The notes under the pieces: model-generated
What the model was told of the DNA's origin: nothing
Seen by the model: the letters and a program-made list of their open reading frames with translations, nothing else
The model's database searches: none
Source: Deltaproteobacteria bacterium
GTDB lineage: Bacteria; SAR324; NAC60-12
Reading direction: 5' to 3'
NCBI GenBank assembly: GCA_018645085.1
Contig: JABGPG010000238.1
Coordinates: 11,699 to 56,455 of the forward strand
Length of the DNA: 44,757 bases
Shown here: in pieces, positions 985 through 16,367 of the stretch
How positions within the stretch are numbered: position 1 is the first letter of the stretch
How the letters are laid out: every line of letters starts with the position of its first letter
Program-made: the position numbers and the translations under genes

Positions 985-2313
985 ATGGAATTACCTGAAA
1001 TACAAGAAGTAATTAAGCAAGCAGACATTGATTCAATTCGGATCGATTTCCCTGACATACATGGAATTTGCCGAAGCAAGCTGATACCCGCCAGACGTTT
1101 GGAAGCTACACTTGAAGAAGGGTTGAATTTTGCGGAAGCGACCTACATTGTAGATTTTGCAAACGACATAGCTTTTGAAGGTGGATGTGGTGGTGATTCA
1201 GGTTGGTCAGATATGACAGCCCGTCCAGACCTTGAGACCTTCGCGATTTTACCTCATCAACCTCATACCGCCCGTATCATTGCCAATACTTTTTTAAAAG
1301 GGGTTCCGCATCCCGTAGACCCCAGAGGCACATTAAAGAAAATTTTGGATCGCTACGAAAAGCTGGGTTTGAAAGCCTTTGCTGCATCTGAGTTGGAATT
1401 TATGCTCTTCGATCCAGTCAGTGGAGAAAATTACAACAATTCACCTTCCTGTGTTTATCAGGTTAATTCTTCGGTGGATAAACTTGGTATATTGCGTACC
1501 ATCCAAAACGCGTGTCTGGATTTGGGTATTGAGATTATTTATCTTAATCATGAATTTTTCCCAGGACAGTTTGAGGTCAATTGGAAATACTGTGATGCCA
1601 TGAAAATGGCGGATCAGACTTTCACTTTCAAACATCTCTGCAAGGAAATCGCCACCCAAAACGACTTGCATCTCACTTTCATGGGGCGGCCAAAAAGTGG
1701 CGGCGGCGGAAATGGTTATCATATCCATCTATCTTTAAATAATCTGGATAATGGAAAAAATGCCTTTGACGAGCCGGACGGAAAAGACGGTATGTCTGAA
1801 CTCCAACGCCATTTTATCGGTGGTCAATTAGCTCATGCGAAAGGTATGGCTGCCCTGTTGGCACCGACAATCAATTCCTATAAGCGCTATGTTCCGGACT
1901 CATTTGCTCCATATTTTATAGCCTGGGGCGGAGATAACCGTACTGTATATTGCAGGGTCCCGGATGAACGTGGAACAGCTGCCAGAGTTGAAAACCGCTC
2001 CGCTTGTGCGTCCGCTAATCCTTACCTTGCTATTGCCGCTACTTTAGCTGCCGGATTGGATGGTATCGAAAATAAAATCGATCCGGGAGAACCGGCAAAT
2101 TGTGATATTTATCACGATGAATCCGGACAATATGAACCAATGCCGTTTTATCTCCGTGATGCGATTAATGCCTTAAAAAAAGATGAATTTCTGAATGAAA
2201 TCTTCAGTCCGGAATTGTTGTCAGCATTTATTGCACTCAAAGAACGAGAGGAAGATCGTTTTAGAACAGCGGTAACAGATTGGGAATTTAACGAATATTC
2301 CTATCATCTTTAA
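985..2313 (+). CDS. Glutamine synthetase-like gamma-glutamyl-amine ligase (GmaS/PuuA/GlnA3-like)
   Basis: GS motifs ELEF, HEFFPGQFE, GNGYHIHLS, PTINSYKR, WGGDNRT, RVENR, NPYL. The flap reads YVPDSFAP instead of LVPGYEAP. Adjacent to mgsABC-like genes. Confidence 0.85.
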   Translation: MELPEIQEVIKQADIDSIRIDFPDIHGICRSKLIPARRLEATLEEGLNFAEATYIVDFANDIAFEGGCGGDSGWSDMTARPDLETFAILPHQPHTARIIANTFLKGVPHPVDPRGTLKKILDRYEKLGLKAFAASELEFMLFDPVSGENYNNSPSCVYQVNSSVDKLGILRTIQNACLDLGIEIIYLNHEFFPGQFEVNWKYCDAMKMADQTFTFKHLCKEIATQNDLHLTFMGRPKSGGGGNGYHIHLSLNNLDNGKNAFDEPDGKDGMSELQRHFIGGQLAHAKGMAALLAPTINSYKRYVPDSFAPYFIAWGGDNRTVYCRVPDERGTAARVENRSACASANPYLAIAATLAAGLDGIENKIDPGEPANCDIYHDESGQYEPMPFYLRDAINALKKDEFLNEIFSPELLSAFIALKEREEDRFRTAVTDWEFNEYSYHL

Positions 2314-2443
2314 TTGAAAAAACAGGCTATATAAAAAAATAAACAAGTACAGGAGATAGAGATTTGTTGAAGGCGCTTGAAAGTAGAGCACTGATAAAAT
2401 CCAGCTATCCTCTAACCTAGTTAAAATAATAAAAGGTTTGCTT

Positions 2444-3361
2444 ATGTGTGGACTCACAGGAATCATTGCTAATAATCCGGAAGGACTAGGTGTTGGCTTA
2501 ACAAAAATGCTCAAGGAGATTGAGCATCGTGGACGGGATGCCACCGGATTTGCAGTGTATGAAATCCGGGATGATATTCAAATTCGTGTTTCTATCCGGA
2601 ACATCGACAGCAAACCGGAGTTGTTGAAAATTCTTGAAAAATACGATCAACCCTCTGCAACCAACGTAACTTCCAGTGGCCGCAGCTACAAAGGTGTGGG
2701 GATTTTCGATTTTTATGAAACTTCGCTAAACATGCCACCTTCAGAAATCGAAGCCCTGCATCACGAAATAGACAGCCATCCTGATTTGTGCGTTCATTCG
2801 CTTGGTAAAAAAATTAAAGTTTATAAAGATCAAGGTACGGCGCGCGATTTGGAGAACCATCATCAATTTAATATCGGCCCGGCTACACACGGCATCGGTC
2901 ATGTACGCTTGGCAACGGAAAGCCTAGAGGATATTAATTTTGCCCACCCTTTCATATCTGAAATGTATCCGGGATTAAGTCTGGTACATAATGGACAATT
3001 CACTAATTATTTCAATTTGCGCCGTAGTTTGGAAACAAAAGGTGTACGCTTCAAAACTAATAATGATTCTGAAATAGCAGTCCAGTATCTGGCTTTTCTA
3101 ATGAAACAAAATGGAGGTGATCTCGAAGGGGCAATACATCAGGCGATGGAAAAGTTCGATGGTGTGTTTACCATAATTGTCAGTACGGAAGATCAAATCG
3201 GCATTTTTCGCGATGAGTTGGGAATGAAGCCTGTTTTGTTTTTTGAAACAGAGGACGGTTCGGTCTTGTTTGGTTCAGAAGAAATATCACTGGCCAAAAT
3301 AGCAACAGATGTGAATGCGACTGAAATGGAACCAGGAGGAGTGAAAGTATGGAACATTTAG
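2444..3361 (+). CDS. Class II (Ntn) glutamine amidotransferase, N-methylglutamate synthase subunit A-like (MgsA/GlxB)
   Basis: ATG at 2444 gives MCG (N-terminal nucleophile Cys). HRGRDATG, GIGHVRLAT, HPF, VHNG and DSE motifs present. Confidence 0.85.
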   Translation: MCGLTGIIANNPEGLGVGLTKMLKEIEHRGRDATGFAVYEIRDDIQIRVSIRNIDSKPELLKILEKYDQPSATNVTSSGRSYKGVGIFDFYETSLNMPPSEIEALHHEIDSHPDLCVHSLGKKIKVYKDQGTARDLENHHQFNIGPATHGIGHVRLATESLEDINFAHPFISEMYPGLSLVHNGQFTNYFNLRRSLETKGVRFKTNNDSEIAVQYLAFLMKQNGGDLEGAIHQAMEKFDGVFTIIVSTEDQIGIFRDELGMKPVLFFETEDGSVLFGSEEISLAKIATDVNATEMEPGGVKVWNI

Positions 3362-4053
3362 ACATCACAGGTAAAAGTATTGGTGAGACAAATCGGGCAT
3401 TAAGAAATCTCATTGCCGATCATGATCAAGTGATCATTGACAATCCACATTCCTCACACAATTTGGGAACAGCTCTCAAAGGCAATGGCAAGGTAACCAT
3501 CAACGGCAGCACTGGCTATTTCACCGGCGGTTTTTTGGCCGGGCCTACTCTTGATATCCTGGGGAACACTGGATGGTACACCGGTGATAATATGAGTGCC
3601 GGTGAAATTATTATTAGCAAAAACACCGGAAGCAACTGTGGTCCTTCGATGATGGGAGGCACTATTCTGGTACGCGGTAATAGCGGAAGCCGTGTAGGTT
3701 TTGCGATGAAAGGTGGAAATCTGATTGTCTGCGGAGATGTTGGACGCTGGGCCGGTTACATGACTTTGGGCGGACGCATCATTGTGTTAGGTGAAATGGG
3801 GCCGGTAATCGGTGAATCAATGTACCGTGGCATTATTCATACCGCTGATCCTGCTGTGGAAAAGAAGTTGGGAAATAATGTCAGCGTTATTCCCATTTCG
3901 GATGCTGAAAAAAAAGAAGTCTCTGCCCTGTTTGAAAAATACCAAATTGATCATCCAGTTAACTCTTTGAAAAGCGTGATTCCGTTAAAAACAGGACGGA
4001 CAAAATATACGATATTTAATCCAACTCACAAAGTGAGGTCTAAAAATGACTGA
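3349..4053 (+). CDS. GXGXG beta-helix protein, MgsB/GlxC-like (glutamate synthase domain 3 / FwdC fold)
   Basis: Repeated GxxGxxxGxxMxGG units. Overlaps both neighbouring genes. Confidence 0.85.
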   Translation: MEHLDITGKSIGETNRALRNLIADHDQVIIDNPHSSHNLGTALKGNGKVTINGSTGYFTGGFLAGPTLDILGNTGWYTGDNMSAGEIIISKNTGSNCGPSMMGGTILVRGNSGSRVGFAMKGGNLIVCGDVGRWAGYMTLGGRIIVLGEMGPVIGESMYRGIIHTADPAVEKKLGNNVSVIPISDAEKKEVSALFEKYQIDHPVNSLKSVIPLKTGRTKYTIFNPTHKVRSKND

Positions 4054-5359
4054 AGAAGCAACAAAAACAAGAAACCGTAAAAAAGATAAAATTCCAAAGG
4101 TGCCAAATCCCGATGGAATATGGACAAAAGAGGTTCGCGCTGAAATAAATCATAAAGCAGTAACCGGTCAGCATCGTATACGTGGAATGGGTGTAAACAT
4201 GCGATACCCCAACTTTGATGATTTGCTGGTTTTGCCGGCGCAGCTTTCACGTTTGTCTGTCGACACTTACCGCGAACCATGTGTCACCAAAACAGTTTTG
4301 GGAACACGCTTCGCGAAAAAACCGCTGGAAATTGAAACTCCGATTATGATTTCCGGAATGTCATACGGTGCGTTAGGTAAAGAAGCAAAAACCGCATTGG
4401 CCAAAGCAACCCAAATTGTCGGGACTTCGATCAATAACGGAGAAGGCGGATTACTTCCGGAAGAAAGAGACAACTCCTATAAACAGGTTGTACAGATCCT
4501 TCCCAGCCGTTTCGGCTTTTCGCTGGAAACGATTGAAGCTGCGGATGCGCTGGAAATTATTTGCGGAATTGGGGCGAAACCCGGACTTACAGGACATCTC
4601 TTAGGAAGTAAAATTACAGAGGAAATTGCGGAAATGCGACAAATTCCTGCAGGACTGGATCTTTACAGCCATCCTCGTCACGGTGATATATTTGGTCCGG
4701 ATGACATGGTTTTGAAAATTCAGGAACTGAGAGATATTACCAATTATGAAATTCCGATTTTCCTGAAAATTGCGGCAGGCCGTGTTACTGAAGATGTTAA
4801 AATTGCCGTTAAAACCGGTGCGGACGGAGTCGTGATTGATGGCTGTCAGGGCGGTACAGGAGCGGCGCCGGTAGTGGCTTTGAAACATTTGGGCATCCCT
4901 ACCTTACCAGCATTGGTGCAAGCCACAAAGGCTCTTGAGGATATGGGGGTCAAAGATGAATTCAGTCTCATCGTTTCAGGCGGGATCAAGGACGGAGCGG
5001 ATGTTGCCAAAGCAATGGCACTTGGTGCGGATGCAGTTGCTATCGGAACCGGAGCGAATATTGCCTTGGGATGCACGACCTGTCACCAGTGCCACGAAGG
5101 AATTTGCGGTTCCGGAATCTGTACGCAAGAACCGCAGTATCGTGAATTGCTTAAATGTGACGCAGCTGAAAGAGTGGCAAATTATATAACTGCCATGACA
5201 AACGAAGCTGTGATCCTCGCCAAAGCAGCGGGTAAAACTAGGCTGTCAAATCTGGAGCGGGAAGACATTCGTTCAATTACTTTGGAAGCTTGTGCAATGA
5301 CCGGAATTCCATTGGTCGGAACAAATTATACTTTTACGGAAAGGTTTGGGTTTTGTTGA
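4046..5359 (+). CDS. FMN-binding glutamate synthase family protein, MgsC/GlxD-like
   Basis: MSYGAL, GEGG, GAKPG, DGCQGGTGA and SGGIKDGADVAKAMALGAD motifs. CTTCHQCHEGICGSGIC Fe-S region. Confidence 0.88.
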   Translation: MTEEATKTRNRKKDKIPKVPNPDGIWTKEVRAEINHKAVTGQHRIRGMGVNMRYPNFDDLLVLPAQLSRLSVDTYREPCVTKTVLGTRFAKKPLEIETPIMISGMSYGALGKEAKTALAKATQIVGTSINNGEGGLLPEERDNSYKQVVQILPSRFGFSLETIEAADALEIICGIGAKPGLTGHLLGSKITEEIAEMRQIPAGLDLYSHPRHGDIFGPDDMVLKIQELRDITNYEIPIFLKIAAGRVTEDVKIAVKTGADGVVIDGCQGGTGAAPVVALKHLGIPTLPALVQATKALEDMGVKDEFSLIVSGGIKDGADVAKAMALGADAVAIGTGANIALGCTTCHQCHEGICGSGICTQEPQYRELLKCDAAERVANYITAMTNEAVILAKAAGKTRLSNLEREDIRSITLEACAMTGIPLVGTNYTFTERFGFC

Positions 5360-5747: not shown

Positions 5748-6935
5748 ATGAAACACTTTGTAATTACGACAATGTTCGGAACATTGGTAGTACTTCTTTC
5801 ACTGGGAACGGTTTCAGCCGGATCGTTCAATATTGATGCTGTACTTGCAACAAATCTTTCGTCCTGTAAAGCAGCTCCGAGTGGGACACCTTTGAAAATC
5901 GGTTATGCCGCCGATTTTTCGGATCTGGGAGGATTTGCTGATAAACCAGCCAGTCAAGCCGCATTATATTTTGTGGAACTGGTTAACTGTGCAGGCGGAG
6001 TTGACGGATCTCCAATCAAGTTAATTATAAAAAATATCGAAGGCAATCCGGAAGTAACTCAACGTGTCGGACATGAATTGATGGCTGCAGGAGTATCAGC
6101 CATGCTCGGACCTCCATTTCCGGATTTCGGTGAGCCTCTGTTACAAGTAACTGCAGGAAAAGTTGCGACTCTGTTTGTTGCTTCAACAGAACCCATGCTG
6201 GCTAATTCAAAAGCACTTTCGTACCTGGTCGCTTTTGATGACACAGCGCAAGCGACCGCCGCCGCCAAATTCGCACTTCAACAAGGATGGAGAACGGCGG
6301 TAACATTTTCCGCACCTGGTCCTTATTTTGGTTACAATCCGAAAATTTTCAGCAAAGTTTTCAAAGCCGGTGGAGGTAGCATAACCGCCGATTACAACTT
6401 TGTGCCGATTGATGACATGGATTTTTCCACGCAAGCCAATAAAATGGCTTCGGCGGGAAAAGCTCCGGATGTGGTTTATTCAGCCATGCTTTCCTTTCAA
6501 AGTGCTGTTTTGCGGGGGCAGTTAGATGCTGCTGGTGTAAAGACTAATTATCTGGTAACCGATGCTTTTGAAGCAACAGGAGGTTATTTCACAAAAGGCG
6601 TAGAAGGTTTTTATCACACTACACATTCCTATCCGGCGGAGGGTAGCCGCGTCAAAATATTAGCTGACGGTTATCAGGCAGCAAAAGGCGCTCCTTTGGA
6701 AAATGCCTCTTTCGGTGGATTGGCTGTTGATGCATTGGCAGTCATTATCAGTGCTTTCCAAAGTTCTGGTTCAATGGATCCAAAAATACTTGGTGCTGCA
6801 ATTGCTAATGCCGACGGAGTAGAAGGTGCTACAAGTAACCTTTCTTATTCGGGTGCCAATGGAGCTCCTTCTAAACCGGTCTTTGTTCACCGTGTTGTAG
6901 ATGGAGCACCAACGTTAGCGGCCACAATTCAGTAA
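5748..6935 (+). CDS. ABC transporter periplasmic binding protein (LivJ/K, HAAT family)
   Basis: N-terminal signal peptide, VNCAGGVDG and DFSTQ motifs. First gene of a LIV-type operon. Confidence 0.85.
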   Translation: MKHFVITTMFGTLVVLLSLGTVSAGSFNIDAVLATNLSSCKAAPSGTPLKIGYAADFSDLGGFADKPASQAALYFVELVNCAGGVDGSPIKLIIKNIEGNPEVTQRVGHELMAAGVSAMLGPPFPDFGEPLLQVTAGKVATLFVASTEPMLANSKALSYLVAFDDTAQATAAAKFALQQGWRTAVTFSAPGPYFGYNPKIFSKVFKAGGGSITADYNFVPIDDMDFSTQANKMASAGKAPDVVYSAMLSFQSAVLRGQLDAAGVKTNYLVTDAFEATGGYFTKGVEGFYHTTHSYPAEGSRVKILADGYQAAKGAPLENASFGGLAVDALAVIISAFQSSGSMDPKILGAAIANADGVEGATSNLSYSGANGAPSKPVFVHRVVDGAPTLAATIQ

Positions 6936-7663
6936 TGGATAGTGGTTTGCTTAACGTTGAAAACCTGAATACCCGCTATGGTTCTATACGAGCTATTCGC
7001 AGAGTCGGATTAACTGTTAAGGCTGGTGAGATTGTCTGTCTCATCGGCCCTAATGGTGCAGGAAAAACGACTTTGCTGGGGACTGTAGCAGGGCTATTGA
7101 ATCCGGTTCAGGGACAGGTAGTTTTCAATAATGTAGATATAACAGGCTGGTCTCCGGATCGAGTACTCCGTGCAGGTCTTTCCCTAGTACCGGAACATCG
7201 CAGAATTTTCGGCAACTTTACTGTTCGTGAGAATCTGCTAGTTGGCGGTGTGACTCTATCTCAGGATCAACGGGAAAATTTGCTGGAGGAAATGCTGGAC
7301 CTTTTTCCTGTACTGAAAGATAAACTTTCGGTTTCCGCCGGATTTCTCTCTGGTGGTGAAGCTCAACAACTTGCCATAGGCCGTGCCTTGATGAGCAACC
7401 CTAAAATGCTGCTCATGGATGAGCCGTCATTGGGTTTGGCACCTGTACTTGTGGATGTGGTGTTTGAACTGATCTCCAAATTGCGTGATAGTGGTCGGAC
7501 CCTGCTGGTTGTGGAACAAAACGCACAACGTATACTTAACGTTGCCGACAGGGCTTATGTGATGCGTTCGGGGCAGGTTGTCGCAGAAGGTTCGGCTTCA
7601 GAATTGTCAGGAAGCGAGGACCTTTTTAAGACTTACCTTGGTGGTTCGGGAGTTGCGGCGTGA
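6935..7663 (+). CDS. ABC ATPase, LivF-like
   Basis: Walker A GPNGAGKT, LSGGEAQ signature, DEPSLGLAP, VEQN. Confidence 0.92.
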   Translation: MDSGLLNVENLNTRYGSIRAIRRVGLTVKAGEIVCLIGPNGAGKTTLLGTVAGLLNPVQGQVVFNNVDITGWSPDRVLRAGLSLVPEHRRIFGNFTVRENLLVGGVTLSQDQRENLLEEMLDLFPVLKDKLSVSAGFLSGGEAQQLAIGRALMSNPKMLLMDEPSLGLAPVLVDVVFELISKLRDSGRTLLVVEQNAQRILNVADRAYVMRSGQVVAEGSASELSGSEDLFKTYLGGSGVAA

Positions 7664-8547
7664 TGGAACTGATTCAACAAATTGTCGATGGTTTGGGGCG
7701 AGGTAGTATTTACGCTTTGCTTGCTCTAGGGATTGCTGTGATTTTCGGAGTGATGCACATGGTCAATTTTGCACACGGCGAACTTATCACGGTCAGTGCA
7801 TACACTAGTTACTGGCTGCTTACAAGCGGCTTTGATTGGTGGTATGTGGCATTGGCGATAATAGTTGTTGCGGCTATTAGCTCTGTTGTTATTGAATTTG
7901 TGGCGTTTCGCTGGGTACGCGGCGCGCCTGACTTTACCATGTTGATGACCTCTTTTGGAGTCCATTTTCTAGTGCAGGCACTTTTCGTAATGTACGTGTC
8001 GGCTAATTTTCGACAATTTCCGCGCCCTGACTGGATATTTAACACTTGGAAAATTGGTGCAATCAACCTTGAAATTTACGACTTAGCGGTAATTGCTACC
8101 ACATTAATCACACTTCTCGGTACTTATTGTCTTTTACAACATACGATGTTTGGTATAAGCCTGCGCGCTGCAGCCGAAGATTTTGATGCTGCCCATCTTA
8201 TGGGTATTCGCAGTAACCGCGTTATCCGGGGAGCATTTTTTCTTTCCGGTCTTTTAGCTGGAGTTGCCGCAGTATTTTGGTTGATGCGTAGCGGTCAAGC
8301 CGGACCTGTTGCAGGTCTCAATCCAATGTTAAAAGGTGTTTTGGCTGCTTTAATTGGTGGTCTGGGAAGCCTGAGTGGAGCCGTGCTTGGAGGATTTGCG
8401 TTGGGCTTGGTTGAAGTTCTACTTATCGCACGCCTGCCGACCGAAGTTGTTGGCTTGACAGATGGAATTGTTTTTGTGCTGATTGCTCTACTTTTTGTTT
8501 TTCGACCTCAGGGTTTAATAACTGTGCATCACGTGGAGCGTGTCTGA
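7663..8547 (+). CDS. ABC permease, LivH-like
   Basis: GSIYALLALG, VNFAHGE, IGGLGSL and RPQGL motifs. ATG overlaps the livF stop (TGATG). Confidence 0.9.
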   Translation: MELIQQIVDGLGRGSIYALLALGIAVIFGVMHMVNFAHGELITVSAYTSYWLLTSGFDWWYVALAIIVVAAISSVVIEFVAFRWVRGAPDFTMLMTSFGVHFLVQALFVMYVSANFRQFPRPDWIFNTWKIGAINLEIYDLAVIATTLITLLGTYCLLQHTMFGISLRAAAEDFDAAHLMGIRSNRVIRGAFFLSGLLAGVAAVFWLMRSGQAGPVAGLNPMLKGVLAALIGGLGSLSGAVLGGFALGLVEVLLIARLPTEVVGLTDGIVFVLIALLFVFRPQGLITVHHVERV

Positions 8548-10400
8548 TGCGACATGACTCTATCCGCCATCTCGTTTTTCCAACATTTGGCTCAATCTTA
8601 CTGATTGTGGTTTTGATTTGCGGGGGCATACTTTATACAGCAAACGGCGATGCATCACGTGACAGTCTGATCACACAAATGCTGATAAATGCCATCATCG
8701 TGCTTGGTATTCAAATTTACATCGGAAACACAGGAGTTTTATCCTTTGGGCACATCGGTTTCGGAGCGATTGCCGGATATACATTTGCTATTTGTGCCAT
8801 TTCTCCTGCACGTAAAATGATGCAAATTCCTGATGCTCCGTTTGGACTGGCGAATGTTGACTTGACCCCTTTAGCGTCAGGAATAATCGCAGTTGGTCTA
8901 ACAGTAGCGTTGGCATTTTTTGTCGGCATGGCACTTTCACGTGCAGGTGTCCGTTCAGGTGCAGTATCAGCAGTTGTGATTACTTTGGCCCTACTGTTTG
9001 TCGTTCACGAAGTAGCTCGAAACTGGACAGATCTGACCCGTGGAGGGAAGATAGGCCTTTCTTTCAGCCCTTTTGGTAATGCAACTCTTGAAGGGAAAAA
9101 CTGGATTTACGTATTTTTGTTTTGTGCGGTTTTGCTGGCTAGACTATTCAAGGAAACGCGAATTGGCCGTTTTGCGCAGTGCGTGCGTGAAGACGATCTT
9201 GCTGCGCGGACGATGGGAATTGATCCAGCAATTCAGCAAATGTGGGCTTTAATTATTTCAGTAGCCCTAGTGTCGGTTGGATCGACCTTAAGAGTTTTTG
9301 AGTTAGGTAGCATCAATCCAAGGTTGTTCTTTTTTGATTATACATTATTGACGCTCACCATGCTAATAGTCGGAGGGCGTAACGGTATTACTGGTGCTTT
9401 GACCGGAGTAGTGATTATCACCATCGGTAGTGAACTGACTCGCAAATTGTCTGAATTGGATATTGTAGCATTGAGTTGGATTTTGCGTGAAGGTCTGACC
9501 GATTTATTTCTGGGCGGCGCTATGCTCGGATTTATGATTCTGCGGCCTGCCGGTATTTTAGGAGATTTTGAGTTTGATCATTGGCTGCACGAACGATTCC
9601 TCCATAGGCAAAAGAAAAAGACTTGGACATCGAAGGAAGAACAGATACGAAGCAAAGTTGTTAAAAAAAACCAAACCGTGTTGAATGTTGAAGGTGTCAG
9701 CGTTAATTTTGGCGGTTTTCGGGCACTGGGAAATGTAGAGTTGAAGGCTACCGGGGACGAAATCGTGGGACTGATTGGTCCCAACGGCGCGGGAAAAACG
9801 ACATTGCTGAATGTTATTACAGGACTTGTAGAACCAGATTCCGGGCGAGTCCAACTCGGTGAAAAGAATTTGACGGGAATGCAACCGCACGAAATTGCAA
9901 GATCTGGATTGGTACGCACCTTTCAAAATTTTCGGTTATTTTCAGACCTGAGTGTCCGTGAAAATATCGAGGTAGTCCACTTGATGGCCGGAAAGTACCG
10001 TTCTGCACAAACTCCGGATGTTGACACTTTGCTGTTTCAAGCGGGGCTTTGGGAGTTTCAAAGTTTAAGAGCTGCAGGTTTGGATTATGGAAATGCACGG
10101 CGGTTGGAATTGGCACGTGCTGTTGCCGCCGCACCGGATTTTCTTCTACTTGATGAGCCAACAAGCGGAATGGATGATAACGAATCAATGGCCATGATTG
10201 ACCAAGTACGGACAATGTCTTCAATGGTTGGTTCCGGAGTTGTTGTTATCGACCACGATTTGAATTTCATCACCGGAATTTGTGACCGGGTTTATGTGCT
10301 TGACCAGGGGTGTGTGATTGCCTCCGGAACACCTGCGGAAATTTCAGCCGATCCTGCAGTAAAAGTGGCGTATTTGGGTACAACTGCCGAAGCTGCCTGA
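8547..10400 (+). CDS. Fused ABC permease (LivM-like) and ATPase (LivG-like)
   Basis: N-terminal membrane domain with GVLSFGH. C-terminal GPNGAGKT, RTFQN, LLLDEP and IDHD. Confidence 0.9.
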   Translation: MRHDSIRHLVFPTFGSILLIVVLICGGILYTANGDASRDSLITQMLINAIIVLGIQIYIGNTGVLSFGHIGFGAIAGYTFAICAISPARKMMQIPDAPFGLANVDLTPLASGIIAVGLTVALAFFVGMALSRAGVRSGAVSAVVITLALLFVVHEVARNWTDLTRGGKIGLSFSPFGNATLEGKNWIYVFLFCAVLLARLFKETRIGRFAQCVREDDLAARTMGIDPAIQQMWALIISVALVSVGSTLRVFELGSINPRLFFFDYTLLTLTMLIVGGRNGITGALTGVVIITIGSELTRKLSELDIVALSWILREGLTDLFLGGAMLGFMILRPAGILGDFEFDHWLHERFLHRQKKKTWTSKEEQIRSKVVKKNQTVLNVEGVSVNFGGFRALGNVELKATGDEIVGLIGPNGAGKTTLLNVITGLVEPDSGRVQLGEKNLTGMQPHEIARSGLVRTFQNFRLFSDLSVRENIEVVHLMAGKYRSAQTPDVDTLLFQAGLWEFQSLRAAGLDYGNARRLELARAVAAAPDFLLLDEPTSGMDDNESMAMIDQVRTMSSMVGSGVVVIDHDLNFITGICDRVYVLDQGCVIASGTPAEISADPAVKVAYLGTTAEAA

Positions 10401-10694: not shown

Positions 10695-10973
10695 ATGACA
10701 GCGACACGATACAAAAAAATCGAACGGGGCAAGCCCATCAGCATTATGGTCAACGGTGAAGCGATCGAAGCTTTTCACGGCGAAAGCATTGCTGCCGCAA
10801 TGCTGGCTTCAGGAAGAAGAGCTTTTCGTCATACGGTCAAAGGAAAACAAGCCCGTGGTTTCTTTTGTGGAATGGGTATGTGTTTTGACTGCATTGCCAC
10901 GGTTGACGGAGTTCCACATGTGCGGACATGTATGACTGAGGTTTCTCCTGATTGTGTTGTGGAACTGGAATAA
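10695..10973 (+). CDS. [2Fe-2S] subunit of HcnA / sarcosine-oxidase-alpha N-terminal type
   Basis: GESIAAAM and CGMGMCFDC...RTC motifs. Confidence 0.85.
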   Translation: MTATRYKKIERGKPISIMVNGEAIEAFHGESIAAAMLASGRRAFRHTVKGKQARGFFCGMGMCFDCIATVDGVPHVRTCMTEVSPDCVVELE

Positions 10974-12561: not shown

Positions 12562-14282
12562 TAATGAAGAAACTTAAAGCAGATGTTATCATTATCGGTG
12601 GAGGAATTGTCGGCTGCACTACTGCATACAATTTGTCGCAACGCGGTGCTGATGTTTTACTGATAGAAAAAAATGGTATCGGTAGTGGTGCTACGGGGCG
12701 GTCCGGTGGAGGAATTCGTCAATCGGCCAGGGTTTCCAACGAAATTCCTTTGGCCATGGAAAGCGTGGCGTTATTTCCGGGATTGTCAGCTGAACTTGGG
12801 ATTGACATTGAATACACTCAGTCCGGTAATTTCAGGCTGGTCGAAATGCCCGACCATCTGCGTCCAATGCAAGTTGATGTCGCCCGGCAGCAATCGCACG
12901 GCTTGGATGTGCGTTGGCTTGGTGTAACGGATGTCCTGGAACTTGCTCCGGGACTGCGCTGGCAAAATATCATGGGGGCAAGCTATTGTCCTGATGATGG
13001 ACATTGTGATCCATTCCGCATGGTTTCAGGCTTTTTTCGTAAAGCAAAAGAATTCGGCACAAAGGTTTTACTAAACAGCGAGGTACAAAGCATTGAGCAA
13101 ACGGATGACGGAAAAGCCGTTGTCAAAACCAGCACACATTCCGTTCAAGCAGAAAAAGTGATTATTGCGGCAGGCTTTGGTTCGCAGGAATTATGTCAAA
13201 AAATAGGTTTGGATTTGCCTCTGCAAAATGTGCGTTACGAATCCATGGTTACAGAACCGCTGCCTCCGATTTTATCACAAATGTTCGGGGTGGCCAGCAG
13301 TGATTTGTTTTTCCGGCAGACGCAGAACGGTGGAATTCATTTTGGGGGGGGGCTGCTCGAGGAAGAAGATGAGGAAGACACCAAGACTACCCGAGATAAT
13401 TTAAACATGGCTGTGGCGCATATTTCCCGACTAGTCAAGGACTTGGGAAAAACCAACTTGCTGCGGACATGGGGAGGACTTGATCCGAGTACTCCTGATG
13501 GTATGCCGATCCTCGATTATCTCAATGAAAACGTCTTGCTGGCCACAGGTTTTTGCGGACACGGCTTGGCGCTGGGACCCATTGTCGGAAGATATTTAGC
13601 GGAATGGATATCCAGCGGCCAACTTCCGGAAGCACTGGAACCATTCAAGCGGAACCGTTTTGACGGTTGGCTCCAAACTAAATGGACCCCCTCTGGTGCA
13701 TTTGCGGCAGTTTTAGCAACCGAAGACACTCAGACTTCCGGAAGAGGAACTGTTGGATCCGGGATCCCGTTTATGACACCGCCGGAATATGATGATTCGG
13801 AAGATGAAGGTTTGCATAAATTATTGTCGGTGAATCCGGAAATGTGTACCGGCTGCCGGATGTGCGAAAGTGCGTGTTCCATTGAACACGAAAAAATGGT
13901 TCGCCAAACTGGTTTACGGATTCAGGTGGCTTATCCGAGTGATGACTTTTTTCTGCCGATTATGTGCATTCATTGCGAAGAAATGCACTGCATGGAGGCT
14001 TGCGTATACGATGCTTTGGAAATCAACGATTATGGAATTGTTTCAGTTGTTGATGAAAATTGTATAGGCTGCATGCTCTGTATTCCGGCCTGTCCCACTG
14101 GAGGAATAACGTATGTAGACAGCAAAGAAACAGTTGTCAAATGCAATCTATGTGGTGGGAATCCGGCTTGTGCCAAATATTGTCCCACACAAGCAATTAC
14201 CTTCCGTCCGATTGATGATGAAATCCGTGAAAAAATGGAGACTGTGATGAGCAAACATCTTGATTCACGAATAGAAAAGTAA
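12558..14282 (+). CDS. DAO-family FAD amine dehydrogenase (HcnC/OoxB/SoxB-like) fused to a 4x[4Fe-4S] ferredoxin
   Basis: IIGGGIVG, GATGRSGGGIR, TPDGMP, GFCGHGLALGP. From about 13818 there are four Cys clusters: CTGCRMCESAC, CIHCEEMHCMEAC, CIGCMLCIPAC, CNLCGGNPACAKYC. Confidence 0.85.
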   Translation: MIMKKLKADVIIIGGGIVGCTTAYNLSQRGADVLLIEKNGIGSGATGRSGGGIRQSARVSNEIPLAMESVALFPGLSAELGIDIEYTQSGNFRLVEMPDHLRPMQVDVARQQSHGLDVRWLGVTDVLELAPGLRWQNIMGASYCPDDGHCDPFRMVSGFFRKAKEFGTKVLLNSEVQSIEQTDDGKAVVKTSTHSVQAEKVIIAAGFGSQELCQKIGLDLPLQNVRYESMVTEPLPPILSQMFGVASSDLFFRQTQNGGIHFGGGLLEEEDEEDTKTTRDNLNMAVAHISRLVKDLGKTNLLRTWGGLDPSTPDGMPILDYLNENVLLATGFCGHGLALGPIVGRYLAEWISSGQLPEALEPFKRNRFDGWLQTKWTPSGAFAAVLATEDTQTSGRGTVGSGIPFMTPPEYDDSEDEGLHKLLSVNPEMCTGCRMCESACSIEHEKMVRQTGLRIQVAYPSDDFFLPIMCIHCEEMHCMEACVYDALEINDYGIVSVVDENCIGCMLCIPACPTGGITYVDSKETVVKCNLCGGNPACAKYCPTQAITFRPIDDEIREKMETVMSKHLDSRIEK

Positions 14283-14293
14283 CAGGGAAAATT

Positions 14294-16129
14294 ATGTACT
14301 ACGGATACACCGGAACCATCTTGCGGGTTAATTTGACGCATGGCGAAGTTACAAAAGAAGCACTCGATCTCAAAATGGCAGAAGAATTTGTCGGTGGACG
14401 CGGCTTAGCTTCCAGATTGCTCTGCGCAGAGATTGATCCTGAGATTGAAGCTATGAGTCCGGAAAATCCGCTGATCTTCGGAACAGGACCTTTGACTGGA
14501 ACGGGAGCACCGGCGACTGCGCGTTATGTCGTAGTTTGTAAAGCACCGTTGACTGGAACCATCGCTTGCTCCAATTCCGGAGGCTTTTTTGGACCAGAAA
14601 TAAAATTTGCCGGTTATGACGCACTGATTATTGAAGGCGAGTCTCCTGAACCAGTTTATCTGTGGATCCAGGATGATCGAGTTGAAATACGTTCTGCTTC
14701 ATTATTATGGGGAAAAACTCCCGTTGAGACAGAAAGCACTCTACAGAAGCTGACTCATCCGGCTTCGAAAATCGCCTGCATCGGTCCCGGTGGAGAAAAG
14801 CTGTCTTTGATGGCCGGAATCGTCAATGACAATTATCGTCTCGCAGCGCGAAGTGGAGTTGGTGCTTTGATGGGTAAAAAGAAGCTGAAAGCAATTGCTA
14901 TACGCGGAACCGGAGGAGTGAATCTCGCTGACCCCGAACAGTTTTGGAAAGCATCAATGGACATGCATGCTAAAATTACTGGAGATCCTGTTTCATTTGG
15001 AAGTTTCCGGGCTTACGGTACTGCCAGCCTTGTTAATTTGATCAACGAAATGGGGGCTTATCCCACCCGTAATTTTCAATCAGACACATTTGAAGATGCG
15101 GTAAAAACGGGAGGAGAAGCGATTACAGAAGATATTTTAGAACGTAACCGTGCCTGTTTCGCCTGCCCGATTTCCTGCACCCGGGTGACAGAAGTTAAAG
15201 AGGGACCGTACAAAGGCCGCGGTGAAGGGCCTGAATACGAATCTACCTGGTCTTTAGGCGCTCTCTGCGGGGTTTCGAATCTAGAGGCCGTGGCAAAAGC
15301 AAATTATCTTTGCGGAGATTACGGCATCGACACTATTTCCACCGGAGCGACTATTGCTTGTGCGATGGAGCTTTTTGAAACCGGTGCTTTGTCAGAAAAA
15401 GAAATTGGTTTCCCTCTGCGTTTTGGCGATGAGGCAGCAATGGTGCGAGCAGTTGAAATGACAGGCAAGCGCGAAGGGTTTGGTGATATTTTAGCGGACG
15501 GAAGTTATCGATTGGCTGAACGTTACGGACATCCTGAATTTTTCATGGGCGTAAAAAAACTGGAAATGTCCGCTTACAGCCCCAGAGTTTTTCAGGGTAT
15601 GGCGCTTCAATACGCCACCTCCAACCGTGGAGCGTGTCATGTGCGTGGCAATACTGTAGCTGCTGAACTGTATGGAATTCCACGTTATATGCCTCCGGAA
15701 GTTTTGGAGCAAAAAGAAGAAATGGTGCGGCGTCCATTCCAAAACTCCACTGCTTTTGTGGATTCCACCGGAATTTGTCTTTTTACAAAATTTGCAATAA
15801 CGCACCGTGAAATTTGTGCCTTGCTGGCTCCGGCTACCGGTATTGATTTTAACTTCGACCGCTCGATTGTTCAGGGCGACCGCATCTGGAATTTAGAACG
15901 CATGTTTAACCTTCGCGCCGGATTCACCGCTGCGGATGACAAACTACCCGCCCGCGTGAGTGAACCTTCTCCTGACGGACCGCGTGCCGGCAGCCGCGCA
16001 ATTCTGCAAAACCACATTCAAACCTACTATCAATTACGTGGTTGGGATGAAGAAGGCCGCCCCACTCGTTCAAAGTTGAAAGAGCTAAATTTAGAAGACT
16101 TCTGGAACGTCTGCAGCGAACATGATTAA
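14294..16129 (+). CDS. aor: Tungsten-type aldehyde:ferredoxin oxidoreductase (AOR family)
   Basis: GYTGTILRVNLT start, GGRG, SNSGG, GRSG-like AARSGVGA, CFACPISC, GPEYE, DYGIDTIS, RGACH, DSTGIC, YYQLRGWD. Length 611 aa. Confidence 0.92.
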   Translation: MYYGYTGTILRVNLTHGEVTKEALDLKMAEEFVGGRGLASRLLCAEIDPEIEAMSPENPLIFGTGPLTGTGAPATARYVVVCKAPLTGTIACSNSGGFFGPEIKFAGYDALIIEGESPEPVYLWIQDDRVEIRSASLLWGKTPVETESTLQKLTHPASKIACIGPGGEKLSLMAGIVNDNYRLAARSGVGALMGKKKLKAIAIRGTGGVNLADPEQFWKASMDMHAKITGDPVSFGSFRAYGTASLVNLINEMGAYPTRNFQSDTFEDAVKTGGEAITEDILERNRACFACPISCTRVTEVKEGPYKGRGEGPEYESTWSLGALCGVSNLEAVAKANYLCGDYGIDTISTGATIACAMELFETGALSEKEIGFPLRFGDEAAMVRAVEMTGKREGFGDILADGSYRLAERYGHPEFFMGVKKLEMSAYSPRVFQGMALQYATSNRGACHVRGNTVAAELYGIPRYMPPEVLEQKEEMVRRPFQNSTAFVDSTGICLFTKFAITHREICALLAPATGIDFNFDRSIVQGDRIWNLERMFNLRAGFTAADDKLPARVSEPSPDGPRAGSRAILQNHIQTYYQLRGWDEEGRPTRSKLKELNLEDFWNVCSEHD

Positions 16130-16367
16130 TGTTACTGTAAAACTCAGCGCCGATTTGCGTCGTTATCGTCCAGCTCTAAGAATTGATGAATCCCTGCCAC
16201 TTTCAGTCCCGGAAGAGACGACTTTGCTGGAACTCCTCTCAGAAATACTACAAATTCCAGCCCATGCGATCGCCATTCCAATTGTCAACGGAGTTAAGTG
16301 TAAACTCAATCAAAAACTGGTAGAAGGTGACCGGGTAGCCTTCTGGCCGCCGATGGCGGGGGGCTAG
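16122..16367 (+). CDS. MoaD/ThiS family sulfur-carrier protein
   Basis: 81 aa ending in MAGG, with VNG and GDRV. Overlaps the AOR stop, as is typical in AOR operons. Confidence 0.85.
   Translation: MINVTVKLSADLRRYRPALRIDESLPLSVPEETTLLELLSEILQIPAHAIAIPIVNGVKCKLNQKLVEGDRVAFWPPMAGG

Follow-up and report, generated by a model that had tools for sequence, protein, structure and literature searches.

An aldehyde oxidoreductase apparently plugged into an amine-oxidising flavoenzyme in a SAR324-like genome

Overview of the operon

The window studied here, a stretch of 44,757 nucleotides from a SAR324-like MAG, carries an operon in which an aldehyde oxidoreductase (AOR) appears to be directly plugged into an amine-oxidising flavoenzyme via a fused Fe-S domain. 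Homology searches identify the C-terminal 180 residues of the DAO-family subunit of this flavoenzyme as the WorS/AorA small subunit of tungsten AORs, and the neighbouring AFOR-family protein as an AOR sensu stricto. The operon is most likely accessory and catabolic, and dedicated to a primary amine (R-CH2-NH2). In the scenario that we favor, to which we assign a probability of about 0.5, this amine would be glutamylated at the expense of ATP and its carbon moiety released as a free aldehyde, which the AOR would oxidise on the electron chain of the flavoenzyme. The gene content, the domain and cofactor motifs, the gene order across phyla and the occurrence of the locus in contigs from RNA libraries are observed, and the steps of this pathway are inferred.

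The first-pass annotation had described a divergent TetR gene followed, on one strand, by a ligase, MgsABC-like genes, a transporter, flavoenzyme subunits, an AOR and a MoaD gene. The ORF listing and Pfam searches agree with this gene content: apart from the divergent regulator, all are present on the plus strand between positions 985 and 16367, the exact ends of the first and last genes (Table 1). Overall, what that annotation observed stood, and its interpretation did so in part. A further 22 loci, spread over four phylum-level groups, show the same gene order, so the arrangement is not a product of chance. The TetR gene, whose C-terminus is cut off by the window edge, has orthologues (56-60% identity) at the same position in loci L016/L032 and L021, and none was found within 2.8 kb upstream in L015, the closest relative. 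The 94-residue ORF that follows the FMN subunit has no Pfam or NCBIfam matches and tblastn searches against L015 and L016 were also empty; it is probably not a gene.

Table 1. Features of the operon and its surroundings (window positions)
Feature	Position	Strand	Evidence or remark
TetR/BetI-type regulator	3..623	-	TetR_N 49.8 bits, TetR_C_6 28.5 bits; divergent
GS-like gamma-glutamyl-amine ligase (predicted)	985..2313	+	Gln-synt_C 347.8 bits
Class-II (Ntn) amidotransferase subunit	2444..3361	+	GATase_6 75.2 bits
GXGXG subunit	3349..4053	+	PF01493 83.1 bits
FMN (Glu_synthase) subunit, trio-1 type	4046..5359	+	PF01645 341.5 bits
ORF, 94 aa	5384..5668	+	Probably no gene
LIV/HAAT-type ABC importer	5748..10400	+	Pfam, incl. 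Peripla_BP_6 binding protein
Importer, binding protein	5748..6935	+	
Importer, ATPase	6935..7663	+	
Importer, permease	7660..8547	+	
Importer, permease-ATPase fusion	8547..10400	+	
Small [2Fe-2S] subunit (Fer2_4)	10695..10973	+	PF13510 87.4 bits
Alpha-like flavoprotein, 484 aa	11107..12561	+	Pyr_redox_2 + BFD [2Fe-2S] + SO_alpha_A3
DAO-WorS fusion, 574 aa	12558..14282	+	DAO 263.2 bits + 4Fe-4S
AOR large subunit (WorL)	14294..16129	+	AFOR_N 261 bits, AFOR_C 465 bits
MoaD/ThiS-family protein, WorX-like	16122..16367	+	PF02597 26.9 bits

The aldehyde oxidoreductase and its probable flavoenzyme partner

The closest solved relatives of the AFOR-family protein are AORs (9mqx_D, E = 7.5e-199; 1aor_A, 9.9e-185; 8c0z_A, 1.5e-173), the match to the FOR structure 1b25 being weaker (1.7e-92). 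It retains the PfAOR residues involved in catalysis and in pterin and cluster binding: T243, E316, Y428 and H449 align to T243, E313, Y427 and H448 of that enzyme, and C288, C291, C295 and C495 are conserved. A MoaD-like gene follows in 19 of the 20 loci with sequence beyond the AOR; PMC13328260 presents WorX as a cofactor-maturation partner in WOR operons. The genome, which is 88% complete, yielded no WtpA-type tungstate-binding protein.

No separate WorS gene lies beside the AOR, and 11 bases separate it from the DAO-WorS gene. In the product of the latter, a DAO-family dehydrogenase part (residues ~7-370) precedes a 4x[4Fe-4S] polyferredoxin of WorS/AorA type (~397-560). Residues 7-369 find their nearest solved relative in 1y56_B, the beta subunit of an L-proline dehydrogenase (E = 5.9e-45), sarcosine oxidase beta being a weaker match (about 1e-27), and residues 397-553 resemble the Fe-S subunits found in AOR structures (8c0z_C, 4.8e-32; 9mqx_E, 2.5e-27), with 16 cysteines invariant in 20 sequences. 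The first-pass annotation had seen a DAO-ferredoxin, the WorS/AorA identity of its C-terminus having escaped it.

The other two subunits of the flavoenzyme resemble pieces of sarcosine oxidase alpha. The Fer2_4 protein is similar to the N-terminus of this chain and of HcnA (it covers residues 13-66 of 1vrq_A) and has four cysteines invariant in 14 sequences. The alpha-like protein covers residues 127-563 of solved alpha chains (1vrq_A) and positions 168-598 of the 996 of TIGR01372; its GAGPAG motif is invariant and Cys386, Cys388, Cys421 and Cys426 are conserved in 95% of 21 sequences. Both alignments stop before the C-terminal folate (GcvT-like) part, and the gamma and delta subunits have no Pfam matches among the operon ORFs, as had been reported of this short subunit and its surroundings. 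Since there is no folate domain, the flavoenzyme would release glutamate and a free aldehyde. Against the third (FAD) chain of the Aromatoleum AOR structure, the alpha-like protein gave no match at E <= 0.001.

The fusion is followed by an AOR in 22 of 23 places, from SAR324, Gammaproteobacteria, Chloroflexota and one Bacillota MAG, and the sole exception is a locus that stops 70 bases past the DAO-WorS gene. By comparison, none of the 21 non-fused-relative loci examined (out of 58) has an AOR, and Fer2_4 and alpha-like genes adjoin the DAO gene in 15 of them. Among the best 150 matches in a library of 1.84 billion representatives, only one is a full-length fusion. The proposed link between flavoenzyme and AOR is thus borne out (22/23 fused against 0/21 non-fused) and, with WorS fused to the DAO subunit, it is tighter than originally described. 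A model of the AOR in complex with residues 395-574 of DAO-WorS obtained a score of 0.95 (best control 0.00); 58 of 80 solved complexes attained this mark, as did 2 of 110 mismatched pairs. Runs agreed on at least 92% of contacts, the pLDDT of the partner was 86, and the cluster loop of the AOR (286-292) touches Cys-motif residues 431-435; since similar complexes have already been solved, this model speaks only for likeness to them.

The ligase, the amidotransferase trio and the importer

The predicted ligase is neither a canonical GmaS (TIGR03105 332.9 bits, cut-off 469.6) nor a glutamine synthetase (GlnA model 318.5 bits, cut-off 429), the true GlnA of the genome being encoded elsewhere (654.2 bits). 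It has an Ala at the Asp50' position and a Phe at the Glu-flap position of glutamine synthetases, so that both ammonium residues are missing, as in GmaS, and an Asn replaces the catalytic Asp177 of GmaS. It is 30% identical to the canonical GmaS of the same genome, which is found on another contig (C128; TIGR03105 645.8 bits) together with mgsABC-like genes and Tdm; a full-length SoxA-family alpha subunit is also present (contig C50). Since these give the genome a canonical set of Tdm, GmaS and MgsABC as well as a full SoxA-type enzyme, methylamine is an improbable substrate. This part of the original proposal, in which methylamine was a candidate, is weakened by that set and by the score and Asn of the ligase, and the amine of this operon is probably another one.

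The ligase is followed by a class-II amidotransferase, a GXGXG and an FMN subunit of GltB/MgsABC-like type (hereafter trio-1). The amidotransferase ORF may start at 2438 or 2444; the ATG at 2444 is the likely start and gives Met-Cys-Gly, and the N-terminal MCG(I/L), thus Cys1, is conserved in all 21 aligned homologues. The FMN subunit shares 64-96% identity with those of 10 other fused-type loci and 72-77% with those of the Desulfobacterales-type loci discussed below, against just 46% with the canonical copies of the genome, and in the tree it is separate from the group formed by canonical and trio-2 sequences.

Alternatively, the ligase could open a route resembling Puu, with a diamine or an amino alcohol as substrate: one end would be glutamylated, the DAO enzyme would oxidise the distal amine to an aldehyde, the AOR would yield a gamma-glutamyl acid and the amidotransferase would hydrolyse the amide into glutamate and an amino acid. 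In E. coli, Puu enzymes follow the order of GS-like ligase, DAO-family oxidoreductase, aldehyde-oxidising enzyme and amide hydrolase. The order of enzyme types also matches that of a marine ethanolamine glutamylation cluster described in PMC10132767. The gamma-glutamylputrescine synthetase model (NF045547) does match the ligase, yet with 268.6 bits it is far under its cut-off of 650. Moreover, simple hydrolysis would require neither a GXGXG nor an FMN subunit, yet in this half no protein is better conserved than the FMN subunit, while the entry names of solved multi-subunit SoxAB/PDH-type dehydrogenases indicate N-substituted alpha-amino acids as substrates. We therefore consider this route unlikely.

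The same LIV-type ABC set is found at 9 of the 23 fused-type places, and an APC permease substitutes for it in six Chloroflexota/Bacillota loci, a swap between phyla that fits the uptake of a substrate. This bears on a biosynthetic direction, in which the AOR would use low-potential electrons to reduce an acid to an aldehyde and the flavoenzyme and trio-1 would build an N-alkylated or gamma-glutamylated compound from it. Strong reductants do let AORs reduce acids, according to PMC9295118. Nevertheless, the operon is framed by an importer and a repressor-type regulator, two unrelated importer families interchange, and elsewhere the ligase and trio-1 are joined to a catabolic-type microcompartment and acylating aldehyde dehydrogenases, which makes this direction very improbable.

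Distribution and separability of the two halves

Of 18 informative places, 11 have the ligase and trio-1 next to the dehydrogenase-AOR module; they come from SAR324, a gammaproteobacterial MAG, Chloroflexota and Bacillota, and in them the genes lie on the same strand and with short gaps. Trio-1 is not nearby in six of the 18, each gammaproteobacterial. Four loci (L018, L019, L035 and L036) have Fer2_4, alpha-like, DAO-WorS, AOR and MoaD genes with neither ligase nor trio-1 nearby, and L018, L019 and L036 also have a LIV-type importer of the amino-acid family. Three of the five gammaproteobacterial genomes (G041-G043, completeness not given) lack orthologues of both the ligase and the trio-1 FMN subunit, the best identities being 34-36% and 39-49%, respectively, so the dehydrogenase-AOR half can function without this feeder. 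The co-conservation that the first-pass annotation put forward as a check thus holds for the pairing of dehydrogenase and AOR and does not always extend to the ligase and trio.

These loci raise the possibility that the dehydrogenase-AOR half is self-sufficient for an imported secondary-amine amino acid, with the ligase and trio-1 as optional neighbours. L-proline would be a candidate, oxidised to pyrroline-5-carboxylate and, through glutamate semialdehyde, to glutamate by the AOR; sarcosine or another N-alkyl amino acid would be others. The DAO domain, which among solved structures is most similar to the beta subunit of the Pyrococcus L-proline dehydrogenase complex, points this way, and so do the common ligands of LIV-type binding proteins, amino acids, the nearest solved relatives of the binding protein being annotated as amino-acid binders. 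Yet the ligase and trio-1 directly adjoin the module in four phylum-level groups, and the gammaproteobacterial genomes carry other gmaS/mgsABC-like sets (FMN subunits 48-49% identical) that could feed it. Furthermore, the lack of an AOR beside the 21 non-fused dehydrogenases examined ties it to a particular substrate class rather than to the enzyme family. All in all, a self-sufficient module seems fairly unlikely.

The other half also occurs by itself. Metagenomic contigs of Desulfobacterales type also encode this ligase and trio-1. Fer2_4 comes next in 38 of the 48 loci examined (each at least 8 kb), and after it a SoxA-like Pyr_redox_2 protein (soxA model positions 170-502, 137.6 bits) and a ferredoxin gene. 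In profile searches of 76 such loci, neither a DAO subunit nor WorS was detected (top scores 30.0 bits, falling on the alpha-like protein, and 24.5 bits, respectively) and a single locus had an AOR; hence the ligase and trio-1 do not always need a DAO partner. Among the 42 loci that reach 10 kb or more, 22-25 have microcompartment shell, PduS-like and EutJ-like genes downstream, and some loci have EutE/PduP-type aldehyde dehydrogenases, an independent hint of an aldehyde intermediate. The two halves of the operon are separable.

Trio-1 may itself be redox-coupled via the alpha-like/Fer2_4 pair. Taken further, it would be the oxidising enzyme: the FMN subunit would oxidise the N-CH2R bond of the gamma-glutamyl amide, yielding glutamine and an aldehyde, the Cys1 subunit would hydrolyse glutamine, and DAO-WorS would be a second catalytic head or mainly an AOR adaptor. 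This would suit the order of the Desulfobacterales-type loci, devoid of DAO, and the succession of FMN subunit, Fer2_4 and alpha-like genes in the fused-type loci L021, L024, L032 and L033. Still, by homology the partner of a SoxA-like alpha subunit is a DAO-type beta subunit, the two locus types have alpha-like proteins that share only 28-34% identity, and we know of no such reaction in the GltB-like family. We give this interpretation a low probability.

Contigs from four of four metatranscriptome libraries (four studies) cover all 30 bins of window positions 1-19100 and bridge 6813-13816, 11104-14991 and 13336-16494. The locus is thus present in contigs from RNA libraries, with the proviso that assembled contigs cannot prove a single transcript and that DNA may occur in such libraries.

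Proposed pathway

In our preferred reading, the glutamylation of a primary amine, the ABC importer would bring the amine in and the ligase would join it to the gamma-carboxyl of glutamate with ATP. Trio-1 would free the amine from the amide and move it to the alpha position, giving an N-alkylglutamate, and the flavoenzyme made up of Fer2_4, alpha-like and DAO subunits would oxidise the N-CH2R bond. The AOR, docked onto the WorS domain and assisted by the MoaD-like protein for the maturation of its pterin cofactor, would turn the aldehyde into an acid. The electrons of both oxidations would enter one shared flavin and Fe-S chain, whose outlet is probably NAD(P)+, reduced at the alpha-like subunit, or else ferredoxin. 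Such a route through an N-alkylglutamate may also conserve low-potential electrons, as the first-pass annotation supposed.

Comparison with known systems

The N-methylglutamate pathway (GmaS, MgsABC, MgdABCD) has in common with this operon a GS-like ligase without ammonium residues and the order of amidotransferase, GXGXG and FMN genes, then sarcosine-oxidase-like alpha and beta parts. It differs in that the ligase of the window falls below the GmaS cut-off and has Asn at Asp177, its FMN subunit lies outside the canonical group, its alpha subunit is split in two and lacks the folate domain, gamma and delta are absent, and the beta subunit bears a polyferredoxin with an AOR next to it.

The AOR large subunit is very similar to those of the multi-subunit tungsten enzymes Acetomicrobium WOR1 (class IV, likely 9mqx) and Aromatoleum AorABC (WOR class III, 8c0z). 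Further features in common with these systems are a WorS-type 4x[4Fe-4S] partner, a WorX gene of MoaD-like type and an operon-encoded flavoprotein of Pyr_redox_2 type. In the window, however, WorS is no free subunit but the C-terminus of the substrate-oxidising flavoenzyme, and the flavoprotein is SoxA-like rather than AorC-like. The 2026 classification, in the part available, sets WOR classes I-V by WorL, WorS, WorN, WorABC and membrane anchors; its main text lacks the words amine, sarcosine and glutamine synthetase, and its lone "fused" refers to ModBC.

Fer2_4, Pyr_redox_2 + BFD and DAO subunits are also those of the archaeal L-proline dehydrogenase 1y56, HcnABC, OoxAB and D-hydroxyproline dehydrogenase, yet an adjoining WorS domain and AOR are found in the window type and in none of the 21 non-fused three- or four-component relatives. 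One archaeal proline dehydrogenase complex has a ferredoxin-like gamma subunit, which is separate. Puu and the Phaeobacter ethanolamine cluster share with the operon a GS-like ligase, an aldehyde-to-acid step and the recovery of glutamate. They use NAD-dependent dehydrogenases and a simple hydrolase, whose place in the operon is taken by a GltB-like enzyme of three subunits, a flavoenzyme of Fe-S type and an AOR. The first-pass annotation knew of no pathway with this combination, and literature searches, most of them aimed at an amine-flavoenzyme-AOR system, returned no precedent either. Within the literature searched, the wiring of an amine flavoenzyme to an AOR through a fused WorS domain would be a previously undescribed arrangement.

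The operon and its genomic setting

The genes that the first-pass annotation had listed at 985-16367 were recovered as written by ORF listing and Pfam: fourteen co-oriented genes follow a divergent TetR/BetI-type gene, and EF-P and housekeeping genes lie downstream. No operon protein reaches an NCBIfam equivalog cut-off. The metagenome-assembled genome (MAG) that carries the window as part of its contig C282 amounts to 3.1 Mb in 294 contigs and is 88% complete, and the nearest named homologues are labelled SAR324 cluster bacterium. The fusion protein described below is present in only two of 40 SAR324 relatives, and the G+C content is 0.44-0.48 at 4-16 kb against 0.40-0.42 on both sides (window 1-20000), which hints at an accessory, horizontally moved cluster. 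A scan returned 33 promoter-like sites (29.5 expected) and 15 terminator-like sites (18.4 expected), on which no claim is based.

Features of the operon, of its surroundings and of related loci
Feature	Location	Remarks
GS-like ligase	window 985-2313 (+)	First gene of the operon
Ligase-amidotransferase spacer	window 2321-2423	101 bases replaced by 100 others in one metatranscriptome contig (run X18); strain variant
Class-II amidotransferase, GXGXG protein, Glu_synthase-type FMN protein (trio-1)	window 2444-5359 (+)	Three genes after the ligase
94-aa ORF	window 5384-5668	No family match; no counterpart in the two closest relatives
LIV-type ABC importer		Four genes; binding protein at 5748-6935
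Fer2_4 protein		Motif-predicted [2Fe-2S]
Pyr_redox_2/BFD/SO_alpha_A3 protein (alpha-like)	window 11107-12561 (+)	484 aa; motif-predicted FAD, second dinucleotide fold and [2Fe-2S]
DAO protein with 4Fe-4S C-terminus (DAO-WorS)	window 12558-14282 (+)	574 aa; motif-predicted FAD and four clusters
AOR, then ThiS/MoaD-family protein	operon end 16367 (+)	AOR gene starts 11 bases past the DAO-WorS gene; motif-predicted tungsten or molybdenum pterin and one cluster in AOR
EF-P, class-II tRNA-synthetase-like protein, DUF6122 protein	window 16646-19075	Same order in the closest relative, L017; second protein 438 aa, tRNA-synt_2 at residues 111-435, perhaps an EF-P lysylation enzyme extended at its N-terminus
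1152-aa ORF	window 23356-26814 (-)	Sole match weak: GlnD_UR_UTase (29.6 bits, residues 337-403)
Second GltB-like set (trio-2)	L020:14252-16838	
Canonical methylated-amine locus, contig C128 of the MAG	L103:1-18001	
Second gmaS-like gene of C128	L103:10654-11793 and 11682-12278	Split in two overlapping ORFs, with the second mgsABC-like set
Second, distant AOR of the MAG, contig C140	L105:3206-13823	646 aa, 35% identical; beside a sigma-54 activator, succinate-semialdehyde dehydrogenase, acyl-CoA ligase and SauS-type acylating sulfoacetaldehyde dehydrogenase (738.9 bits)
PD40-repeat, PA14 and methyltransferase genes	L026:5908-9606, 11723-14794	Between alpha-like and DAO-WorS and between DAO-WorS and AOR; sole fused-type locus with an interrupted module
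Sister microcompartment loci (examples)	L138:10001-21335; L126:1-14445	

A WorS-type domain fused to the DAO flavoenzyme

One point was absent from the first reading: judged by its sequence, the DAO protein is a flavoenzyme fused to a WorS-type domain, that is, to the small subunit with four [4Fe-4S] clusters that accompanies the large subunit (WorL) of tungsten AORs. Among solved structures, its residues 7-369 resemble 1y56_B, the beta subunit of the Pyrococcus horikoshii proline dehydrogenase complex (E 5.9e-45), the same stretch matching sarcosine oxidase beta more weakly (about 1e-27). Its residues 397-553 resemble 8c0z_C, the iron-sulfur subunit of the Aromatoleum aromaticum tungsten AOR (E 4.8e-32), and also match 9mqx_E, a second solved AOR small subunit (2.5e-27), and the WOR5 small subunit. 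Sixteen cysteines, sufficient for four [4Fe-4S] clusters, are invariant across 20 aligned members.

The AOR itself is a WOR/AOR large subunit (AFOR_N 261 bits, AFOR_C 465 bits). Among solved structures it is closest to PfAOR and to the large subunits of these AORs (7.5e-199 to 1.5e-173); formaldehyde oxidoreductase scores far below (1.7e-92), and an assignment to that type was rejected. Its four cluster cysteines, C288/291/295/495, are invariant or aligned. Its T243, E316, Y428 and H449 align with PfAOR Thr243, Glu313, Tyr427 and His448, which are given as conserved WOR residues in the available part of a 2026 study (PMC13328260). A search of the 88%-complete genome for WtpA gave no hit, and matches to the broad family PBP_like_2 are uninformative; neither result bears on the metal of the AOR.

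The predicted complex of the AOR with residues 395-574 of the fusion protein obtained a score of 0.95 (best control 0.00), the mark for this score being reached by 58 of 80 solved complexes and two of 110 mismatched pairs. The runs agree in at least 92% of contacts, the partner has a pLDDT of 86, and the AOR cluster loop is modelled facing the first Cys motif of the WorS domain. Because WorL-WorS complexes have already been solved, the model indicates likeness to them rather than proof of binding by this copy. In terms of WOR classification, the operon encodes WorL, a MoaD-like WorX and a WorS fused to a flavoenzyme, with no free WorS. It would probably count as class III under the 2026 rules. 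Classes II and III (WorL and WorS, with or without WorN) have a free small subunit bearing four [4Fe-4S] clusters, and class III an FAD/NAD subunit as well. Here the WorS homologue, with its 16 Cys, is fused to a DAO enzyme, and the Pyr_redox_2 protein is SoxA-like, with no match to the FAD chain of the solved AOR at E<=0.001.

The remaining subunits of the dehydrogenase agree with the first-pass description of a 484-aa alpha-like protein devoid of a folate domain and unaccompanied by gamma or delta subunits. This protein spans only model positions 168-598 of 996, unlike the alpha subunits of MgdABCD or heterotetrameric sarcosine oxidase, and Pfam finds neither gamma/delta subunits nor further domains among the operon ORFs. 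Fer2_4, Pyr_redox_2 plus BFD, and DAO subunits encoded together make up the component set of HcnABC, OoxAB and PDH-type flavin dehydrogenases. A second, distant Fer2_4/alpha-like/DAO set (31-36% identity) lies on the 7.3-kb contig C45 of the MAG (L104).

Conservation of the link between the fusion and the AOR

A profile-guided scan of one genome per species retrieved 22 loci (L017-L038, 41-85% identity) in which the fusion is full-length or nearly so, in MAGs labelled SAR324, Acidiferrobacteraceae, Arenicellales, unclassified Proteobacteria, Anaerolineae/Chloroflexota/Caldilineales/Ardenticatenaceae and one Bacillota. With the window counted, the AOR follows the fusion in 22 of 23 places, the exception (L025) ending 70 bases past the fusion gene, and the alpha-like gene precedes it in 22 of 23, L031 beginning at the DAO gene. 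Fer2_4 is found in 20 of the 23, and a MoaD-like gene in 19 of the 20 that have sequence beyond the AOR. Full-length AOR matches are 66-91% identical to that of the window, above the 54-85% of the fusion protein itself. Non-fused DAO relatives (27-35% identity; 21 of 58 loci examined) are flanked by Fer2_4 and alpha-like genes in 15 of 21, but none of these 21 loci has an AOR and a WorS-like stretch occurs in one, 6.5 kb off. Among the best 150 matches in 1.84 billion representative proteins there are one full-length fusion and two fragments, the rest being DAO-only; a 90%-identity database holds 52 full-length fusion clusters (P0001-P0052). On these counts the fusion forms a small, tight family always travelling with an AOR.

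Two contigs of one Acidiferrobacteraceae MAG (L018 and L035) carry two copies of the Fer2_4/alpha/DAO-WorS/AOR/MoaD module. The LIV importer accompanies one of them and not the other, and the first is flanked by genes for an N,N-dimethylformamidase-beta-like protein (DMFA2_C, 283 bits) and an SDR.

The front end: ligase and GltB-like trio

The only name given to the ligase in the Atlas and databases is 'glutamine synthetase'. Its score with the GlnA model TIGR00653 is 318.5 bits (cut-off 429.15), and it has Ala and Phe where the true GlnA of the genome (contig C8, 654.2 bits) has the Asp50'-loop Asp and the flap Glu; GmaS likewise lacks both. According to the available part of PMC7948447, these residues handle ammonium in GS. 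Their replacement, together with the true GlnA on C8, led us to reject the ligase as the glutamine synthetase of the cell. It also falls short of the GmaS model TIGR03105 (332.9 bits, cut-off 469.6; the C128 copy scores 645.8) and is 30% identical to the canonical GmaS of the genome. The same part of PMC7948447 describes catalytic Asp177, Glu186 and Arg312 as strictly conserved in GmaS homologues. When positions were mapped via 7cql_A, with an offset for its 20-residue tag, Asp177 corresponded to Asn in the window and proteobacterial orthologues and to Ser in three aligned Chloroflexota orthologues, while Glu186 and Arg312 were kept. On these sequence grounds, the ligase is neither a glutamine synthetase nor a canonical GmaS. 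Such an enzyme might also serve a route like that of Puu, in which a diamine is oxidised at its distal end, yet the ligase obtains 268.6 bits with NF045547 (cut-off 650) and Pfam detects no class-I amidotransferase-type hydrolase PuuD in the operon; we regard this route as unlikely.

The trio that follows has the subunit order of MgsABC/GlxBCD (Cys1 amidotransferase, GXGXG, FMN with PF01645), and the N-terminal MCG (Cys1) is kept in 21 of 21 amidotransferases. The FMN subunit shares 46% identity with the canonical copies of the genome. A tree was built from 19 FMN subunits after a truncated row (L020) had been dropped; in it the C128 copies and trio-2 form one group (90/89), apart from the window-type rows, among whose lineages the order is unsupported; the window subunit does not group with the copies beside canonical GmaS. 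Trio-2, which is 32-48% identical to trio-1, lies between trio-1 and Fer2_4 in L024, L032, L033 and L037, as well as in L020. Branch lengths of only 0-0.14 separate its nearly identical FMN subunits in Chloroflexota from those in a SAR324-family genome, suggesting a recent cross-phylum transfer.

The co-conservation of all modules that had been expected held in part. In the window and ten other loci, the dehydrogenase-AOR module has the ligase and/or trio-1 as neighbours, with trio-1 FMN subunits 64-96% identical; L037 is ambiguous in this respect and five fused loci are too short to score. On the other hand, trio-1 is missing at six gammaproteobacterial loci with at least 4.5 kb of flank, two of which keep the ligase. 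When five such genomes were searched whole, three proved to lack orthologues of both the ligase (closest hits 34-36%) and the trio-1 FMN subunit (closest hits 39-49%). This absence would suit a dehydrogenase-AOR pathway that stands alone and handles an imported amino acid with a secondary amine, e.g. proline. Nevertheless, those three genomes hold other gmaS/mgsABC-like sets and the front end is retained at the ten loci; the pathway seems to us fairly unlikely for this operon. The importer varies too, a LIV-type ABC set being found in nine places and an APC permease in six Chloroflexota/Bacillota loci.

A sister system with microcompartment genes

The ligase belongs to a family far larger than that of the fusion, with many homologues, 52-65% identical, labelled Desulfobacterales or Desulfobacula. 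A metagenome scan seeded with these returned 80 loci (L126-L205), 52 of them at least 8 kb long: four are window-type, and the other 48 have the ligase and then trio-1 (FMN subunit 69-77% identical). In 38 of the 48, Fer2_4 comes next, usually with a SoxA-like Pyr_redox_2 protein of about 362 aa (soxA model positions 170-502). Beyond these genes, gene clusters were counted in the 42 loci of at least 10 kb, with Pfam and NCBIfam run on representatives only: there is a 167-aa ferredoxin in 27, a PduS-like RnfC/Nuo51 protein in 25, an EutJ-like protein in 24 and a tandem BMC-domain shell protein in 22, BMC-H and EutN-type shell proteins are also present, and some loci encode EutE/PduP-type aldehyde dehydrogenases (525 bits, cut-off 403) and a LIV-type binding protein. 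Profile searches across all 76 such loci detected neither a DAO subunit (top score 30.0 bits, obtained by the alpha-like protein) nor a WorS (top score 24.5 bits), and a single distant AOR.

The ligase and trio-1 are thus repeatedly joined to aldehyde-handling machinery, which independently supports an aldehyde as the product of this front end. As the sister loci lack DAO, the front end does not always depend on that subunit, and the aldehyde-making step is not fixed to it. A redox-active trio that itself makes the aldehyde would fit these loci; we consider this variant quite unlikely. Some microcompartment types still lack a signature enzyme, according to the available part of the catalogue PMC8217296, and the sister loci may supply the signature chemistry for one of them. 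The main text of that catalogue nowhere has glutamine or glutamate synthase; its supplementary tables may list the locus type.

Substrate and expression

Contig C128 of the MAG carries Tdm (1205.6 bits), the canonical GmaS (645.8 bits), two mgsABC-like sets and an Amt-type transporter, and contig C50 (L097) a full-length SoxA-family alpha subunit (964 aa, 743.8 bits) with a SoxB-like beta subunit. Methylamine, one of the examples first put forward as substrate, is therefore already provided for and disfavoured here, and the operon more likely serves another amine. All solved relatives of the importer binding protein are distant and carry annotations as binders of branched-chain amino acids (best E 2e-10), and NCBIfam gives no match; its Atlas neighbours are uninformative on the ligand. 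Nor do the APC permeases found elsewhere come near any curated cut-off.

Of the words sampled from 6400-16367, at least 87% are present in each of 20 public runs (15 studies), and six of these runs are RNA libraries. Contigs of four RNA libraries (four studies) cover 30 of 30 bins of window 1-19100, and single RNA-library contigs span 6813-13816 (importer to DAO gene), 11104-14991 (alpha-like to AOR) and 13336-16494 (DAO gene to MoaD). This is consistent with expression and co-transcription of the operon, although assembled contigs cannot prove one transcript and the libraries may contain DNA.

A proposed route and its significance

The reading that we favour, with a probability of about one half, is a route of the N-alkylglutamate type. 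An amine would be taken up and gamma-glutamylated at the expense of ATP, the GltB-like trio would move it to the alpha position, and a flavin-dependent oxidation of the N-CH2R bond would yield glutamate and an aldehyde, released free because there is no folate domain. The AOR, docked on the fused WorS domain, would then oxidise this aldehyde. Since the operon has no membrane subunit, a soluble acceptor, NAD(P)+ or ferredoxin, is to be expected. The acid/aldehyde couple lies near the potential of ferredoxin, about -500 mV, in the available part of PMC13328260. Under the N-alkylglutamate-type route, these electrons might merge with those of C-N oxidation, which lie at a higher potential, to reduce NAD(P)+, an attractive possibility. 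A biosynthetic direction, beside the importer and the aldehyde-handling machinery of the sister loci, appears most improbable.

A bolder and, in our opinion, doubtful proposal is that Fer2_4, the alpha-like protein, DAO-WorS and AOR form one soluble machine for the four-electron oxidation of a bound amine carbon to the carboxylate. The flavin site would hand the aldehyde straight to the tungsten site, and very low-potential aldehyde electrons and high-potential C-N electrons would be confurcated on one Fe-S/flavin chain, reducing NAD(P)+ without oxygen or quinone. If true, tungsten oxidoreductases would gain a sixth architectural class, the first with a tie to amine catabolism, and in the sister system the same front-end enzymes would be housed in a microcompartment.

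Every part of the operon belongs to a known family; what is new is the fusion, the conserved combination and the sister microcompartment arrangement. A full-text literature search found no description of an AOR joined to a sarcosine-oxidase-like enzyme or a glutamylation pathway, which agrees with the earlier statement that no described pathway with this combination was known. The terms 'aldehyde ferredoxin oxidoreductase' and 'sarcosine oxidase' occurred together only in a global redox-trait survey, unrelated in the portion available. The main text of PMC13328260 mentions no amine, sarcosine or glutamine synthetase, and its supplementary tables may list the clade. According to the available part of PMC5023235, Methyloversatilis has an unlinked tungsten AOR, predicted to oxidise formaldehyde and lower on methylamine than on methanol; it was rejected as the same system.

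Only five of 92 tungsten oxidoreductase clades have a defined physiological role, by the account in the available part of PMC13328260. Gene context here gives an AOR clade a testable one: to take its aldehyde from a flavin amine dehydrogenase, to which it is seemingly fused physically. If this is right, bacteria of low-oxygen sea water and Chloroflexota-rich habitats would oxidise amines without oxygen, folate or NAD-dependent aldehyde dehydrogenases, an added sink of dissolved organic nitrogen that surveys using canonical gmaS as a marker would miss.
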